Assembly (NCBI GenBank): GCA_947085045.1
Contig: CAMTUU010000003.1
Location: 42,013-106,012 of the forward strand
Length of the DNA: 64,000 nucleotides
Origin: an uncultured Microbacteriaceae bacterium
Lineage (GTDB): Bacteria > Actinomycetota > Actinomycetes > Actinomycetales > Microbacteriaceae
Direction of reading: 5' to 3'
Both the position numbers and the translations under genes were made by a program. The number at the start of each line of letters is the position of its first letter. Within the stretch, counting starts at the first letter, position 1. Below are positions 3,667-29,708 of the stretch, piece by piece. The notes beneath the pieces were generated by a model. It made no database searches and was not told where the DNA came from. It saw only the letters and a program-made list of their open reading frames with translations.

Positions 3667-4256
3667 TGGCCACGACGACGCCTGTCGCTGTCGACAGCTC
3701 GCAGCGCACCGCGTTCGCCGTCATCGCCGGGATGGCGGGGGTACTCGGTCTGGTGCTCGTCATCGACGGGATCTGGCGCACGATCGCGCTCGCCGTCGGG
3801 GCGGGACCGGTCGCACTTCTCGCGCGCGGCGACCTGCCGGGTGCCGACGCCCGCATCACGACGGCGACGGTCCTCTCGTCGGACGTGGGCGAGTCGAGCC
3901 GCGCCTTCCTCGTCGGCGGTTCGGCCCTGGGGTTGCTCGTCACCGCGGCCACCTACGGCGCGATCATCGTGTTCCTGGTGCTGGCCGCCCGCGGAACCCC
4001 CTTCCACCGGCTCCTCTACCCGGTCGCCTTCGCGGCCGGGTCGGTGATGACCTTCGGCGGCCTCGCCGCGTCGGCGGTCTCCGGCGTCGGCAGGGTCCAG
4101 GCCGCCGATCACCTCGGCGCCGTGCCCGACGGCCCCTTCGAGGCGGCGTTCACGATCGCCCCCGGAGAGTGGTCGTTCGGCGTCGTCGTGCTGGTCGCCG
4201 CCTTCGTCATCCGGATCGGCCAACGTCTGCAGCGCGACTCCGAAGGACTGGTCTGA
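3666..4256 (+). CDS. DUF2975-like membrane protein, paralog 3
   Basis: Start taken at the ATG in the GTCTGATG junction (MATTTPVAVDSSQRTAF...), giving 196 aa, multi-TM, C-terminal RLQRDSEGLV. The longer track ORF from 3390 runs through paralog 2 in another frame. Confidence 0.75.
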   Translation: MATTTPVAVDSSQRTAFAVIAGMAGVLGLVLVIDGIWRTIALAVGAGPVALLARGDLPGADARITTATVLSSDVGESSRAFLVGGSALGLLVTAATYGAIIVFLVLAARGTPFHRLLYPVAFAAGSVMTFGGLAASAVSGVGRVQAADHLGAVPDGPFEAAFTIAPGEWSFGVVVLVAAFVIRIGQRLQRDSEGLV

Positions 4257-4480
4257 TGCCCCCCGACGAGGACGCCGGACGCATCCACTGCCGTCTCGAC
4301 GAGCTGCTCGCCGAGCGCGGGATGACGCTGACGAAGCTGTCGGAGCTGGTGGGGGTGAGCCTGGTGAACCTGTCGGTGCTGAAGAACGACCGGGCCCGCG
4401 CCATCCGCTTCTCCACTCTCACCGCCCTCTGCGACGCCCTCCAGTGCGAGGTGGGCGAGCTGCTGGTGGTGCGCCCGTAG
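4256..4480 (+). CDS. Small XRE/Cro-type HTH transcriptional regulator (YozG-like)
   Basis: 74 aa, MPPDEDAGRIHCRLDELLAERGMTLTKLSELVGVSLVNLSVLKNDRARAIRFSTLTALCDALQCEVGELL. This is a typical HTH_26/YozG pattern, and the start sits in the third GTCTGATG junction. Confidence 0.85.
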   Translation: MPPDEDAGRIHCRLDELLAERGMTLTKLSELVGVSLVNLSVLKNDRARAIRFSTLTALCDALQCEVGELLVVRP

Positions 4481-26581: not shown

Positions 26582-27820
26582 TCAGAGCGTGATGCCCTGG
26601 TCGCGCATGAACTGAACGGGATCGGTGGTGTTCAGGTTGCCGCCGACGCGCACCATGTAGTGCAGGTGGCAGCCGGTCGAGTATCCGGTCGTCCCCGTCC
26701 GCGCGATCGGCTGACCCGGGTCGACCTGCTGACCGACGCTGACCCCGATTCCGCCCGGCATGATGTGGGCGTAGCCGGTGCCGGTGCCGTCGCCGTTGTC
26801 GATCGCGACGTAATAGCCCCACGAGCCGTACCAGCCGGCGTAGGTGACCGTTCCGGAATGCGCGGCGTAGATCGTCGCAGCGCAGCCGATTCCGGCCATG
26901 TCGGTGCCCGTGTGCCAGGCGCGTGTGCCCTTGAACGGGTCGGCACGCCAGCCGTAGTTGCTGCTGATGAATCCGCCGCTCAGGGGGCGGGCCCAGCCGG
27001 TCGAGCTGATCTGACCGCCGGCGTTGTCGCCCCACTGCGCCCGGATCCCCGCGCTGTACTGCGCGCTGGTCTCGGCGCTGATCCCCGCGAGATACTCGAT
27101 TCGGGCACGTAGCTCGGCGATGTCCCGCTCGGTCTGCGCCAGCTTCTCCGCGGCGGCGATCGCGGCATCCTGGGCGACCGTGAACGCCGCTTCGAACGCG
27201 AGACGCAACTCTTCGAGGATGCCCTGCGCCACCTCGGCCTGCGCGGCCAGCGCGTTCGCGCGATTGCGCAACTCGATCGCCTCGGCGTACAGGTCGGCGT
27301 AGCGGTCACCGATCACCCGGTTGAGCTCGAGGCGGTCGAGCAGCACGTCGGGCGACCCCGGCGTGGTGAATAGCTGCGGGGTGAGATCGGCTCCGCGGCC
27401 CGACTTGCTCATCTCGGCGATGATCTGGGCGGCGACCGAGAACGCCTCCTTCGCCTCGGCCTCGGCGGCGCCGGTCTGGTCGAGCAGCGACTGCGTCTCC
27501 ACGTTCTGCTTGTCGTAGGCGTCCTGCGCTTCGGCGAGCAGTGCGCCCTTGGCGTCGGCGTCGTCCTGCGTGCGCTGCGCCTCGTCCTGGAGTCCCTGCA
27601 ACTGACCGGTCAGGTCTGCACTGAGCGCCGTGGCCTGGGCTTCGTTGCGCTTCGCGGCGACGACCTCCTCCCAGGTGGGGTAGTCGGCGGCGACCGCGGC
27701 CTGCGTCGGGGTGAGGCCGCCGCCGAGCGGAACGAGGGCGAGGGCGAGGGCGGCGGCGAGCACACGGAGGCCCCGCGCGAATCGTTCGCTGCTGGCCCCC
27801 CGGCTGGACTGACGCCCCAT
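26582..27820 (-). CDS. Secreted M23 (LytM-type) metallopeptidase with N-terminal coiled coil, motifs intact
   Basis: Start at the ATG at 27820 (MGRQSSRG.., signal LRVLAAALALALVPL). ADYPTWEEV plus coiled coil. HTGTD (HxxxD), YAHI, CHLHY (HxH, 26660-26668). Confidence 0.9.
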   Translation of the reverse strand: MGRQSSRGASSERFARGLRVLAAALALALVPLGGGLTPTQAAVAADYPTWEEVVAAKRNEAQATALSADLTGQLQGLQDEAQRTQDDADAKGALLAEAQDAYDKQNVETQSLLDQTGAAEAEAKEAFSVAAQIIAEMSKSGRGADLTPQLFTTPGSPDVLLDRLELNRVIGDRYADLYAEAIELRNRANALAAQAEVAQGILEELRLAFEAAFTVAQDAAIAAAEKLAQTERDIAELRARIEYLAGISAETSAQYSAGIRAQWGDNAGGQISSTGWARPLSGGFISSNYGWRADPFKGTRAWHTGTDMAGIGCAATIYAAHSGTVTYAGWYGSWGYYVAIDNGDGTGTGYAHIMPGGIGVSVGQQVDPGQPIARTGTTGYSTGCHLHYMVRVGGNLNTTDPVQFMRDQGITL

Positions 27821-27990
27821 GTTTCCCCGCTTCTTCCTGCCGGCCGAATCACTCGCCGTCCCAGGAACAACTTCGGCAACACTAACAACAAGTCTCAACG
27901 GCGACTTGAACCTAGTTCAGGGGTGCGGATGCGTCGGGCTCATCCTCGGGGTGTCCGACATCCGGGCCGTGCGGTCGCGAGCGGTCGGGA
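27821..27990 (-). promoter_or_regulatory. Conserved structured leader, copy A (5' UTR of M23 gene 26582..27820)
   Basis: 170-nt gap between two same-strand genes. Plus-strand blocks 27890-27915 and 27947-27963 are near-identical to 29308-29333 and 29364-29380. Potential helix 27898-27904 with 27853-27859. Confidence 0.55.
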
Positions 27991-29241
27991 TCAGCCGAGC
28001 ACGATGCCCTGCTCCCGCATGAACTGAACGGGGTCGGTGATATCGCGATCGCCGTTCACCCGCACGTTGAACTGCAAGTGGCAGCCCGTCGACTGACCCG
28101 TCGAGCCGACCTTGGCGATCGGCTGGCCGGGGGCGACCTGCTGACCGACGCTCACGCCGATGCCGCCGGCCTGGATGTGGGCGTAGCCGGTACCGGTGCC
28201 GTCGCCGTGATTGATCGCGACGTAGTAGCCCCACGACCCGCTCCAGCCCGCGTAGGTGACGACTCCGGCGCGCGCCGCCCGGATCGTCGTCCCGCAGCTG
28301 TTGCCGGCGAGGTCGACGCCGGTGTGGAACTGGCGCTTGAAAGTGACCGGGTTGATGCGCCAGCCGTACGGGCTCGAGATGTACCCGCTGATCGGTCGCG
28401 TCCACCCGCTCTGGCTGATCTCGCCCGCGGCTCCGCCGCCCCACTGCGCCTGGATCCCGGCGTTGTAGTCGGCGGTGGTCTGCTGCCGCACGCCCGCCAA
28501 GTACTCGACACGGGCGCGCAGCTCCGCGATGTCCCGCTCGGTCTTCGCCAGCTGCGCGGCTGCCGCTTCGGCCGCGGCGACGGCTGCCTGCAACGCCGCC
28601 TCGGCCTTGATCCGCAGCTCGTCGAGGAGGCCCTGGGCGATCTCCGCCTGGCTGGCCAGGGCCTTCGCGCGGTTGCGCAGCTGGACGGCTTCGGCGTAGA
28701 GGCCGGCGTAGCGGTCGCCGACCACCCGGTTCATCTCGAGGCGCTGGAGCAACATGTCGGGCGACCCGGGGGTCGTGAACAACTGCGGCGTCAGGTCGGT
28801 CAAGCTGCCCGACTTGCTCATCTCCGCGATGATCCGCGCGGCGACCGCGTAGGCGTCCGCGGCCTGCGTCTCCGCCTCGGCGGTCTGGGCGATCAGCGAC
28901 TCGGTCTCCAGCTTCTGCGCGTCGTAGGCATCCTGCGCTTCCGCGTACAGGACACCCTTGGCGTCCGCCTCCTGCTGCGTGCGCTGCGCTTCCTCCTGCA
29001 GGCCCTGGAGCTGGGCCTGGAGGCTGGCGCTCAACGCTTTCGCGTTCGCCTCGTTGTTGCGCGCGGCGACGACGTCGCTCCAGCTGGGATAGTCGGCGAC
29101 GACCGCCGACCTCGCCGGTGAGATCTCGCTCAGCGTCGGGATGAGCGCCAGAGCGACGGCGGCGGCGAGCACGCGGAGAGTCCGCGTGAGCCTCGCCGGC
29201 GCCTGCAGTGAGTGGGCCCCCCGGCCGGACAGTCGTTCCAC
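27991..29241 (-). CDS. Secreted M23 (LytM-type) domain protein with N-terminal coiled coil, degenerate HxH motif
   Basis: Start at the GTG at 29241 (VERLSGRG.., signal LRVLAAAVALALIPTL), in the same GCGGGGAAC context as its paralog. HTGVD and YAHI are present, but CHLQF replaces CHLH (CAC TTG CAG, 28072-28080). Confidence 0.88.
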   Translation of the reverse strand: MERLSGRGAHSLQAPARLTRTLRVLAAAVALALIPTLSEISPARSAVVADYPSWSDVVAARNNEANAKALSASLQAQLQGLQEEAQRTQQEADAKGVLYAEAQDAYDAQKLETESLIAQTAEAETQAADAYAVAARIIAEMSKSGSLTDLTPQLFTTPGSPDMLLQRLEMNRVVGDRYAGLYAEAVQLRNRAKALASQAEIAQGLLDELRIKAEAALQAAVAAAEAAAAQLAKTERDIAELRARVEYLAGVRQQTTADYNAGIQAQWGGGAAGEISQSGWTRPISGYISSPYGWRINPVTFKRQFHTGVDLAGNSCGTTIRAARAGVVTYAGWSGSWGYYVAINHGDGTGTGYAHIQAGGIGVSVGQQVAPGQPIAKVGSTGQSTGCHLQFNVRVNGDRDITDPVQFMREQGIVLG

Positions 29242-29459
29242 GTTCCCCGCACCAACTCGTTCGTCGTCATCGATTCGCCGCCCGGGACCGACCCGCCGCG
29301 GCAGGAAAAGTCTCAACGACGACTTGAACCTAGCCCAGTGGCGCGGTCGAGCCGGTTCATCTGCGGGGTGTCCGACATCCCGCCGGCGATCGCGATTGGC
29401 GTTAACGACGCGCCGACCGTATGCTTGACCCTCGGTTGCTGTGCGGTCTCGCACTTCAC
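29242..29459 (-). promoter_or_regulatory. Conserved structured leader, copy B, plus promoter region of the hydrolase cassette
   Basis: Shares the GGAUGUCGGACACCCCG ... CUAGGUUCAAGUCGNCGUUGAGACUU blocks with copy A. Potential helix 29316-29322 with 29261-29267. Confidence 0.55.
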
Positions 29460-29532
29460 GGCCCCATCGTTTAGTGGCCTAGGACACCGCCCTTTCACGG
29501 CGGCAGCACGGGTTCGAATCCCGTTGGGGTCA
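29460..29532 (+). tRNA. tRNA-Glu (anticodon UUC)
   Basis: GGCCCCATCGTTTAGTGGCCTAGGACACCGCCCTTTCACGGCGGCAGCACGGGTTCGAATCCCGTTGGGGTCA folds as a cloverleaf with anticodon loop CTTTCAC. No encoded CCA. Confidence 0.9.
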
Positions 29533-29565: not shown

Positions 29566-29639
29566 GGCCCTGTAGCGCAGTTGGTTAGCGTGCCGCCCTG
29601 TCACGGCGGAGGTCGCGGGTTCAAGTCCCGTCAGGGTCG
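29566..29639 (+). tRNA. tRNA-Asp (anticodon GUC)
   Basis: GGCCCTGTAGCGCAGTTGGTTAGCG..CCTGTCACGG..GCGGGTTCAAGTCCCGTCAGGGTCG folds as a cloverleaf with anticodon loop CTGTCAC. Confidence 0.9.
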
Positions 29640-29708
29640 CGGAGTGGAAGCCTTTCCGCGAGGAAAGGCTTCTTCCACATCAGACGTCGTTCGACGAACG
29701 TCGGCTGA

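Follow-up and report, generated by a model that had tools for sequence, protein, structure and literature searches.

The sequence blocks shared by the leaders of two neighboring M23 peptidase genes in the 64-kb stretch of Microbacteriaceae DNA analyzed here (the window) appear, on balance, to be the core of a region that controls transcription and that was copied together with its gene when the second M23 gene arose. The first gene, M23-A (26582..27820, minus strand), encodes a coiled-coil M23 metallopeptidase of 412 aa with an ATG start at 27820, and it probably forms a single operon with the NlpC/P60 gene (25310-26551) that follows after a gap of 30 nt. The second, M23-B (27991..29241, minus strand), is a lineage-specific tandem duplicate with 67% amino acid identity to M23-A, and the closest relative (L001) has one M23 copy only, with an A-type leader. 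Both proteins match Pfam PF01551 (M23 peptidase), in agreement with their identification from the sequence alone. The NCBI protein for M23-B is 393 aa long, implying a start at 29172; we kept the start at GTG 29241 because the N-termini of M23-A and M23-B are homologous and the Shine–Dalgarno (SD) sequence is common to both. Across the Microbacteriaceae, the locus in which the conserved blocks are found has the context tRNA-Glu / M23 / NlpC-P60 / ppa / tilS.

Block 1, GGATGTCGGACACCCCG on the minus strand, is identical in the two leaders (27947-27963 and 29364-29380), and block 2, CTAGGTTCAAGTCG(C/T)CGTTGAGACTT, has a single difference between them (27890-27915 versus 29308-29333), a match that arose in 0 of 100 shuffles of the window. 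The sequence-only reading had described both blocks correctly, together with the SD context GCGGGGAA common to copies A and B. Its view of the flanks as unrelated was mistaken, the leaders of M23-A and M23-B being alignable end to end with 75% identity (121/161). The leader lengths that it gave, 170 and 218 nt, are right as intergenic distances, but ~65 nt of the longer one belong to the tRNA side, since the distal part (29396-29459) consists of the divergent tRNA-Glu promoter and the tRNA leader and is not M23 leader. That divergent tRNA-Glu/Asp/Phe promoter, TTGGCG-N18-TATGCT (29396..29425, plus strand), was read from the sequence and is conserved at all tRNA-adjacent loci. The coding sequences of the two genes are identical at 924 of 1230 nt, the same level as their leaders, and gene and putative promoter were therefore duplicated together in tandem. 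At 75% identity the chance of an identical 17-nt run is P=0.26 and that of a 26-nt window with no more than one mismatch is P=0.14; such runs are not improbable, and thus the comparison of the paralogs alone is no proof of constraint: when paralogs are 75% identical, perfectly matching stretches of their leaders are weak evidence by themselves.

It is only conservation across genera of the Microbacteriaceae that shows constraint on the blocks. Variants of block 2 precede the M23 gene in all syntenic orthologs sampled outside Agromyces and Aurantimicrobium, and the block is retained in other genera before M23 proteins that are 40-50% identical to M23-A (L003-L005, L062, L063 and L067-L069). The downstream gene could be judged for 25 of 26 metagenomic matches to block 2, and it was of M23 type in all 25. 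Block 1 is retained throughout the Pseudolysinimonas-like clade and is missing from more distant leaders, whose SD is the same. There were no further copies of the motifs in the window, nor anything else in it resembling block 2, and across ~435 kb of related loci plus the window the motifs occurred nowhere beyond M23 genes and the gene after M23 in L049; a wider regulon was therefore not seen. The blocks are thus kept at the orthologous M23 loci of other genera, and by this conservation the cis-regulatory region tied to M23 hydrolase genes that had been proposed earlier is genuine and selectively maintained.

In the arrangement that we propose, the first promoter (P1) would use TAGGTT as an actinobacterial -10 hexamer of the TAnnnT type, without a recognizable -35. 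The candidate hexamer of copy A lies at the 5' end of block 2 (27909..27914, minus strand), TAnnnT being retained in the variants, and that of copy B (29327..29332, minus strand) lies likewise inside block 2 and is the only TAnnnT hexamer identified in that copy's own upstream region. Ahead of it is an upstream element made of block 1 and its extension, GGATGTCGGACACCCCGAGGATGAGCC in copy A (27937..27963, minus strand), where the GACAC core is nearly invariant in close relatives, and GGATGTCGGACACCCCGCAGATGAACC in copy B (29354..29380, minus strand), where it has the divergent tRNA promoter on one side and that of M23-B on the other. With the form GGACACC-CCGC-GGATGAR-CCGG, two units 11 bp apart fixed at about -54 to -32, this element would have the place and form of an activator site, e.g. 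for an OmpR/PhoB-type response regulator; in copy A, GGATGA starts exactly 31 nt ahead of TAGGTT. Directly 3' of the -10, and spanning the expected start, is a 17-bp imperfect palindrome, TTCAA-N7-TTGAR, which we regard as a putative operator. No other part of block 2 is conserved as widely; the palindrome reads TTCAAGTCGCCGTTGAG in copy A (27894..27910) and TTCAAGTCGTCGTTGAG in copy B (29312..29328), both on the minus strand.

Copy A and the single-copy orthologs also have a second module, in which another candidate -10 (P2, TAGTGT; 27879-27884, minus strand) lies inside three or four contiguous 9-bp direct repeats of the form TGTKRnnnn. The array of copy A, TTGTTAG+TGTTGCCGA+AGTTGTTCC+TGGGACGGC (27855..27888, minus strand), is deleted in copy B, which would therefore be expected to be regulated differently from copy A. 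On the mRNA, a hairpin is predicted just 5' of an exposed SD, GGGGAA, at 27823..27828 for M23-A and at 29243..29248 for M23-B, both on the minus strand. The minimum free energy fold of copy A (27834..27867, minus strand) pairs UUCCUG (27862-27867) with CAGGAA (27834-27839) around an inner stem CGGC/GCCG. In copy B a GC-rich hairpin (GCCGC GG CGGG ... CCCG G GCGGC; 29277..29302, minus strand), predicted from this single sequence, adjoins block 2 on its 3' side.

The way in which the two hexamers vary argues for promoter function. P1 keeps TAnnnT among its variants (TAGGTT, TACGTT in L060 and TAGTTT in L065), P2 is found as TA(G/C/A/T)TGT, and in both, as in a sigma-A -10, T1, A2 and T6 are constant with the middle positions free. 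The P1 variants disrupt UGARCC/GGUUCA, the sole helix that RNAalifold offered for the P1 region; both hexamers vary by the -10 rule and not by a pairing rule. When 34 leaders were aligned without gaps on TAGGTT, G(G/A)ATG stood at -31 in most lineages (L063 being off by one nt), and the ~18 columns between the two held almost no information. Conservation past the P1 hexamer and at -31 is unusual compared with an ordinary promoter and would imply extra protein contacts. A -35-like hexamer 16-18 bp upstream was lacking for P1, and for P2 within the window, and a simple sigma-70 scan found no promoter. In relatives with long leaders, CTGGGCAA is located 16 nt ahead of TA(C/A)TGT in L003, L004, L005 and L068 and 17 nt ahead in L056, so that box and hexamer together read as a sigma-70-like candidate promoter, TGGGCA-N17-TAnTGT; L063 has TTGGCG-N17-TATTGT at P2.

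Two further groups of relatives bear on how the modules are organized. In L049, the M23 leader has block 2 and no array, and an array module with its own CTGGCTTA-N16-TACTGT, preceded by a small hairpin and a T-run, lies upstream of the next gene, at the NlpC/P60 position of the operon; with array and block 2 on different genes, the modules therefore behave as separable promoter units. In the L062/L063/L069 clade, block 2 is without TAnnnT and none was seen by eye further upstream, and the palindrome is retained 58-59 nt before the array 7-mer with unconserved sequence in between. The palindrome in this clade is most simply regarded as untranscribed DNA, a view resting on that by-eye promoter search. 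Helical phasing of block 2 with the array was considered and rejected, as the distances between them (22-23, 58-59, 65-67, 71 and 79-82 nt) share no phase. What was observed is how the leaders are conserved, how their elements are spaced and that covarying helices are lacking; that the region acts as a promoter, where transcription starts and which proteins bind it are inferred.

A different possibility is a transcription start at block 2 or ahead of it, with a protein binding to the single-stranded UGUKR repeats, and perhaps to block 2, in the 5' UTR. As part of the same reading, the bound protein and the SD-proximal hairpin would set translation or mRNA stability. We consider this reading unlikely. 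All modules are strictly sense-oriented, a 9-nt period is odd for DNA-binding response regulators and fine for RNA binders, and the repeats form a U/G-rich island in a genome of 70.5% GC. Moreover, the SD-proximal hairpin takes its 5' arm from the 3' units of the array; in the stem of this hairpin 86% of cells are paired over 18 leaders, with a series U-A, U.G, C-G and one two-sided change. Close relatives exchange these pairs via G.U (UUCCUG/CAGGAA, UUCCUG/CGGGAA, UUCCCG/CGGGAA and UUUCCG/CGGAAA), and similar pairings were seen by eye in L003/L004 and L062/L063/L069. This hairpin is the only element with RNA-level support, which is modest, and its stability is not above that of shuffles (mean folding z -0.7 for the 54 nt preceding the SD in 25 leaders). 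An mRNA leader would, however, leave unexplained the upstream element at its fixed distance, the -10-like variation and the conserved -35-like box at N16, as well as why block 2 persists even with no promoter ahead of it, and we know of no RNA-binding protein that is a candidate for a UGUKR leader. The part of the array 3' of the P2 -10 would be transcribed regardless, its 3' units pair with the sequence just before the SD with the exchanges described above, and an RNA-level role for the array may exist. We also put forward, as a rather improbable suggestion, that the array and block 2 form an undescribed control element for septal peptidoglycan hydrolases of Microbacteriaceae, either a 5'-UTR platform on which an RNA binder would couple to the SD-proximal hairpin or a new mode of binding, with contiguous 9-bp phasing, by the essential MtrA-type regulator. 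In that case, too, the two paralogs would differ in regulation through the missing array of copy B.

The sequence-only reading had proposed a riboswitch or attenuator, with the blocks in a folded aptamer, mutually exclusive helices and an anti-SD box. In its favor are the long leaders before a class of hydrolase genes often under c-di-AMP riboswitches, the existence of an "M23 motif" RNA candidate ahead of M23 peptidase genes (PMC5737381), and the A/B difference, C-G to U-A, which looks compensatory. The complementary segments are indeed present as it described, UCGCCGU/ACGGCGA at 27898-27904 / 27853-27859 and UCGUCGU/ACGACGA at 29316-29322 / 29261-29267, and the CACCCCG/CGGGG complementarity, being invariant, carries no information on pairing. 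Among about 35 orthologous leaders, however, neither of the two proposed helices was supported. Over 18 close leaders UCGYCGU/ACGRCGA has 71% of its pairing, no better than column shuffles, of which 339-390 out of 500 do at least as well; copy B itself is the one two-sided change, the partner has been lost in L033, L036, L046, L037 and L060, and in the predicted folds the long helix forms in copy B and not in copy A. The alternative AAGUC/GACUU hairpin has a standard central pair in only 13 of 27 block-2 variants (11 G-C and 2 C-G, with 8 C.C and 6 G.G), which is what independence of the columns looks like. For 18 leaders the RNAalifold consensus was weak, at -7 kcal/mol, and its covariation term was 0.01 at most. 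Folding energies of the leaders (both copies, three lengths) did not stand out from those of shuffles, with z values of -0.7 to -1.7 and, in the 3' portion of the copy B leader, +0.8.

Nor did covariance models give support at any threshold tried: at the gathering score, Rfam matched only tRNAs in the whole window, as did Rfam 15 in 19 orthologous loci, and at E<=10 the leaders, scanned within the window and each alone, returned no family, including ydaO-yuaA (RF00379), the one suggested earlier, whose model describes a pseudo-symmetric two-domain fold with conserved cores. Distant leaders are, in addition, without block 1. In favor of an attenuator, a terminator scan flagged the block 2 hairpin of copy A only, a 6-bp stem with 3 G-C pairs followed by a U-rich stretch; but the stem is unconserved, copy B is without a U-rich tail, and an intrinsic-terminator attenuator was rejected. 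The riboswitch or attenuator reading is thus largely refuted by the missing covariation, and we now judge it very unlikely. We do not add a new riboswitch class; the region is a fairly ordinary regulatory one.

It is also highly improbable that the repeats encode a short Leu-rich leader peptide, largely of UUG/UUA Leu codons, and that ribosomes translating it or stalled on it would refold the hairpin next to it. The frame in close relatives is TTG TTG TTA GTG TTG CCG AAG TTG TTC CTG TGA, with the GUU triplets of the array all in one reading phase; in many lineages it closes at the TGA of TGTGAC right before the hairpin, and in many leaders an ATG or GTG 6 nt past TA(N)TGT would fit a leaderless start. 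Yet the 9-nt unit accounts for the phase without coding, substitutions show no third-position bias, seven close leaders have AAG or ACG at the start position, and the stop is absent in copy A (TGGGAC), L033, L036, L037 and L046. Six lineages also have an in-frame TGA within the array (L003, L041, L044, L063, L068 and the second gene of L049), which, with the lack of covariation, argues against a coding or a folded-RNA reading alike. Finally, the idea that the blocks are the functionless, least-diverged pieces of a recent duplication fits leaders that are 75% identical (chance runs of such length, P ~0.1-0.25) but is already refuted by the cross-genus conservation, with block 2 before 40-50%-identical M23 proteins elsewhere and block 1 clade-wide in the Pseudolysinimonas-like group, and its probability is next to nil.

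A number of other motifs were tried and set aside. The TGTC-G-GACA palindrome of block 1 is unconserved as an operator, relatives carrying TGCCGGACA, TGCGGACA or GGGGACA, and the palindrome TGAAC-TAG-GTTCA occurs only in part of the close clade. In comparisons made by eye, the spacing or the second half-site did not fit for a LexA/Cheo box or RecA-NDp (TGTCGGTG-N8-TAnnnT), CRP/GlxR (TGTGA-N6-TCACA), the Streptomyces PHO box, BldD, Rex, ECF-type -35/-10 pairs or SigF-type GGGTA; the IdeR/DtxR iron box was represented only by a TTAGGTT half, and DnaA boxes by 8/9 matches in two lineages only. A tRNA-like T-arm in block 2 (GGTTCAAGTC, cf. the neighboring tRNA-Asp) has no T-stem, antisense ORFs over the leaders put block 1 in differing frames in A and B, and the frame of an N-terminal extension of M23-A from TTG 27898 is unconserved.

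Returning to the transcriptional control region, M23 and NlpC/P60 hydrolases cleave peptidoglycan, and their expression hence needs tight control. If the promoter reading is true, this would be a compact and comparatively well-delimited control region of the operon, with two promoter modules, a palindrome and an array, in an actinobacterial family that has been little studied. The tandem pair would also be a natural experiment, the duplicate having kept one module and lost the other.

With respect to known systems, the leaders resemble the M23 RNA motif of Weinberg et al. (2017) in their location, as M23 peptidase genes have that motif in their potential 5' UTR (PMC5737381); the comparison in sequence and structure was made via the Rfam 15 scan, which may or may not include the motif and gave no match in the two leaders or in 19 orthologous loci. 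They share with ydaO-yuaA the location before cell-wall hydrolase genes, but have neither a covariance-model match nor a covarying structure. The WalR (YycF/VicR) regulon includes autolysins, namely M23 (LytM) and NlpC/P60/CHAP enzymes, and MtrAB is regarded as the functional counterpart of WalRK in Actinobacteria, WalRK being a Firmicute system with, to our knowledge, no actinobacterial ortholog. The array units TGTTAC, TGTTAT, TGTTAA and TGTGAC present a TGTWAH-type half-site in direct repeat (GTnAC and RTAACAAT on the other strand). The WalR half-site consensus is TGTWAH, arranged in boxes as TGTWAH-N5-TGTWAH (PMC4168254); the first three units are exact half-sites in direct repeat, with a spacer of N3 as opposed to N5.

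In C. glutamicum, mepA, mepB and nlpC, which are putative cell-wall peptidase genes, are repressed by MtrA, and the published MtrA sites consist of two half-sites with 11-bp phasing, near the -10 for repression and upstream of the -35 for activation (PMC3353115, PMC6265350). The MtrA-controlled promoters (C. glutamicum mepA, mepB, nlpC and rpf2; M. tuberculosis ripA and rpfB) serve the same class of genes, secreted M23 and NlpC/P60 hydrolases. The repeat core here fits GTnAC/RTAACAAT (GTTGTTAC is the reverse complement of GTAACAAC, and ATTGTTAC of L048 that of GTAACAAT), and one candidate site lies over the -10 with another upstream of the -35 position. Unlike those sites, the array has three to five contiguous 9-bp units; its period is 9 bp in every lineage with no 11-bp pair, and the only pair phased at 11 bp is formed by the two units of block 1, the second of which, GGATGAA, is unlike an MtrA half-site. 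The match of the repeat hexamer to WalR and MtrA half-sites may therefore mislead, the period being 9 bp as against the 11-bp phasing of the OmpR family. Lastly, actinobacterial TAnnnT promoters, with a weak or absent -35, resemble both candidate hexamers in keeping T1, A2 and T6, and the neighboring tRNA promoter, TTGGCG-N18-TATGCT, is a local example of the consensus; what sets the present leaders apart from such promoters is the much stronger conservation of the sequence after P1 and of the element 31 nt upstream of P1.

The two paralogous M23 peptidase genes (Pfam PF01551) lie on the minus strand in the order M23-B (27991-29241), M23-A (26582-27820) and an NlpC/P60 gene (25310-26551; PF00877), and a tRNA-Glu/Asp/Phe cluster begins divergently from M23-B at 29460 on the plus strand. 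The duplicated blocks that the sequence-only reading described in front of both M23 genes are real and lie where it placed them: block 1, GGATGTCGGACACCCCG, is identical at 27947-27963 and 29364-29380, and block 2, CTAGGTTCAAGTCG(C/T)CGTTGAGACTT, at 27890-27915 and 29308-29333, is without a near-match in the rest of the window or in shuffled sequences. Also present are the partner boxes ACGGCGA and ACGACGA and a Shine-Dalgarno (SD) context, GCGGGGAA, common to both copies. The flanks of the blocks had been called unrelated, which is wrong, as the leaders can be aligned over their full length at 75% identity, the same level as the coding sequences (75% nucleotide, 67% amino acid). An identical 17-mer (P=0.26) and a 26-mer with one mismatch (P=0.14) are unremarkable at that identity, so the comparison of the two paralogues alone proves little. 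Leader B stands as an M23 leader except for its distal ~65 nt (29396-29459), about one third, which are the tRNA promoter and tRNA leader; this plus-strand promoter (TTGGCG 29396-29401, N18, TATGCT 29420-29425) is kept in every tRNA-adjacent relative. The closest relative, L001, carries only one M23 gene, adjoining the tRNAs and with an A-type leader, and M23-B is therefore a lineage-specific tandem duplicate that carried its upstream region along.

The public M23-B protein, of 393 aa, implies a start at GTG 29172 (minus); we favor GTG 29241 based on N-terminal homology and the SD common to both copies. An in-frame TTG at 27898 (minus) would give a possible 26-aa extension of M23-A, in a frame not kept in relatives. 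At codons 5-9 of both M23 genes, CCGGGGGGC (codons CGG GGG GC, 'RGA'; 27796-27808 and 29214-29226, minus) has the same nucleotides in every close relative but L037, and also in L060, L067 and L068, and the G5 run is also found there in L003, L004, L042, L062, L063 and L069. Glycine is rarely encoded by GGG in high-GC actinobacteria, and the run is a hint that the nucleotide sequence itself is constrained shortly after the start codon.

The organism belongs to the Microbacteriaceae, with Pseudolysinimonas as its nearest named relative (79% amino acid identity). Related sequences were gathered by a protein-guided scan in which one genome represented each species, eleven exact-protein look-ups and a metagenome pattern scan with a degenerate block 2. 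The syntenic locus, consisting of tRNA(Phe-Asp-Glu) and, divergently, M23, NlpC/P60, sometimes a hypothetical gene, ppa (opposite strand) and tilS, was found in Pseudolysinimonas, Galbitalea, Homoserinibacter, Protaetiibacter, Agromyces and uncultured relatives. There were 26 metagenomic matches to block 2, and in all 25 with enough downstream sequence to judge, a gene with the conserved DYP(S/T)W motif of the M23 family followed. In the protein-found orthologues, the unbiased sample for its retention, block 2 is kept in L001, L003-L005, L067 and L068, reads TACGTTCAAGTGGCTGTTGAAACTT in L060 and TAGTTTCAACTCGTCGTTGAGAGTT in L065, persists without TAGG as (A/C)TTC(A/G)AC...TTGA(A/G)GCTTG in L062, L063 and L069, and is absent from Agromyces and Aurantimicrobium. 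The Agromyces loci L006-L011 (about 3880-3970) are without both blocks, keep the hexamer TAGTGT (then GAC) or TATCGT (then GAA), and have a covarying GC-rich hairpin directly before the SD (arms GCGCGGTCC...GGCCCGCGC, GCGGGGGGTC...CGCCCGC and GCGCGGGGCT...AGCCCGCGC). Close M23 paralogues of 57-64% identity occur in copper/thiol-redox clusters (CopC, CtaG, DsbD, thioredoxin-like) in L002, L064 and L066. None of the upstream motifs is found at these paralogues, and the element is therefore tied to the tRNA/M23/NlpC-P60 locus, not to M23 genes generally. The element amounts to a regulatory region that is both conserved and gene-specific.

The best explanation, and by a little the probable one, is a duplicated promoter-operator region. 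It would comprise two promoter modules, P1 and P2, for which the start sites, like the protein identity proposed below, are ones that we infer. P1 would be the candidate -10 TAGGTT without a -35, with an upstream direct-repeat element placed as an activator site would be and a palindromic operator over the expected start. The hexamer at the 5' end of block 2, TAGGTT, conforms to TAnnnT, the -10 pattern of actinobacteria, and its two natural variants TACGTT and TAGTTT retain T1, A2 and T6 and disrupt the helix proposed there by RNAalifold. G(G/A)ATG is fixed at 31 nt upstream in most lineages, across an information-free spacer, and in the close clade this upstream element is longer (GGACACC-CCGC-GGATGAR-CCGG, two units 11 bp apart), with a nearly invariant core, GACAC. 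The most widely retained piece, TTCAA-N7-TTGAR, makes up the 3' part of block 2 and is kept by L062, L063 and L069 despite the loss of TAnnnT; inspection by eye upstream of it in these loci revealed no other TAnnnT, and 58-59 nt of unconserved sequence separate the palindrome from the array 7-mer. A 10-mer, GGTTCAAGTC, is common to block 2 (27905-27914 and 29323-29332, minus) and the T-arm of the opposite-strand tRNA-Asp (29566-29640, plus) in all relatives, probably by coincidence because block 2 has no T-stem.

P2 would have TAGTGT as its candidate -10, overlapped and followed by a 9-bp repeat array placed as a repressor site would be. The array is present in copy A (27855-27888, minus, with TAGTGT at 27879-27884) and in all single-copy orthologues, and is built of a 7-mer, TTG(T/C)TA(C/G), three or four contiguous 9-mers, TGTKRnnnn, and a terminal (T/C)GTGAC. 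Where the 7-mer meets the first 9-mer, a second TAnnnT hexamer arises, TA(G/C/A/T)TGT, preceded in long-leader relatives at N16 (N17 in L056) by CTGGGCAA, a sigma-70-like -35. In L049 the M23 leader has block 2 without the array, and the entire module (CTGGCTTA-N16-TACTGT and four units; minus strand, about 4271-4350) lies upstream of the next gene, at the NlpC/P60 position of the operon; a small hairpin and TTT stand ahead of this array. Copy B, in which TTCCTG and an unrelated GC-rich hairpin directly follow block 2, has lost the array. In L062, L063, L069 and L058, the last array unit, TGTGAC, is complementary to a GTCACA lying between the array and the SD, giving a hairpin or an inverted repeat of the unit itself.

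The main rival, that a protein binds the leader at the RNA level, we consider unlikely. The SD-proximal stem (copy A, UUCCUG/CAGGAA, 27862-27867 with 27834-27839) is the only one for which comparison of the leaders lends some RNA-level support, with U-A, U.G and C-G exchanges and one two-sided change (UUUCCG/CGGAAA, L033). Its stability is not above that of shuffles (mean z -0.7, 25 leaders), and the role of the hairpin is one that we infer.

The riboswitch or attenuator proposed by the sequence-only reading is not supported. Rfam searches matched only tRNAs in the window at gathering score, no family in the leaders at E<=10 (each also searched alone) and none except tRNAs in 19 orthologous loci. 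Neither leader folds better than dinucleotide shuffles, and for 18 close leaders (alignment A2) RNAalifold gave -7 kcal/mol, with zero contribution from covariation. The proposed long-range helix (UCGYCGU/ACGRCGA) pairs in 71% of cells, a level attained by column shuffles in most trials; copy B, from which its compensatory change was drawn, is the sole two-sided change, and the partner is gone in five lineages with block 2 reading TCGCTGT. The alternative AAGUC/GACUU hairpin is 92% paired in close relatives, with one compensated change (L065), but its central pair does not hold across 27 distinct block-2 variants (G-C 11, C-G 2, C.C 8, G.G 6), the proportions being those expected for independent columns. 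The CACCCCG/CGGGG complementarity is invariant, and block 1 is missing in long-leader relatives with the same SD.

Coding readings are very unlikely: the antisense ORFs spanning both leaders read block 1 in different frames, and the short Leu-rich ORF that the single-phase repeats allow, ending at the TGA of TGTGAC, has internal TGA codons in six lineages, no stop in copy A and four relatives and no start codon in seven. The conserved feature of the array is the repeat unit, not an ORF, and the array would be of greater note only if its 9-nt repeats were an undescribed type of RNA or DNA recognition element.

Among known systems, the 'M23 motif' of Weinberg et al. (2017) lies in potential 5' UTRs of M23 peptidase genes and was grouped with c-di-AMP-related candidates, c-di-AMP binding not being observed by those authors (PMC5737381). 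The leaders here match no Rfam model, and by this comparison, made by Rfam scan, their identity with that motif is unlikely. The hexamers of the array match WalR half-sites exactly (TGTWAH; PMC4168254), are the reverse complement of the Corynebacterium glutamicum MtrA half-site RTAACAAT, and fit the Mycobacterium tuberculosis MtrA core G-T/A-n-A-C/T (PMC3353115, PMC6265350). MtrA of C. glutamicum is a repressor of mepA, mepB and nlpC, three genes for putative cell-wall peptidases; it represses from sites near the -10 and acts as an activator from sites upstream of the -35 (PMC3353115, PMC6265350). Based on the half-site matches and this control of peptidase genes, an MtrA-type regulator would be the best candidate for the M23 promoter region. 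Published MtrA and WalR sites have an 11-bp phasing, whereas the array keeps a period of 9 bp in all lineages, and we therefore liken the region to an MtrA-type promoter rather than class it as an MtrA site.
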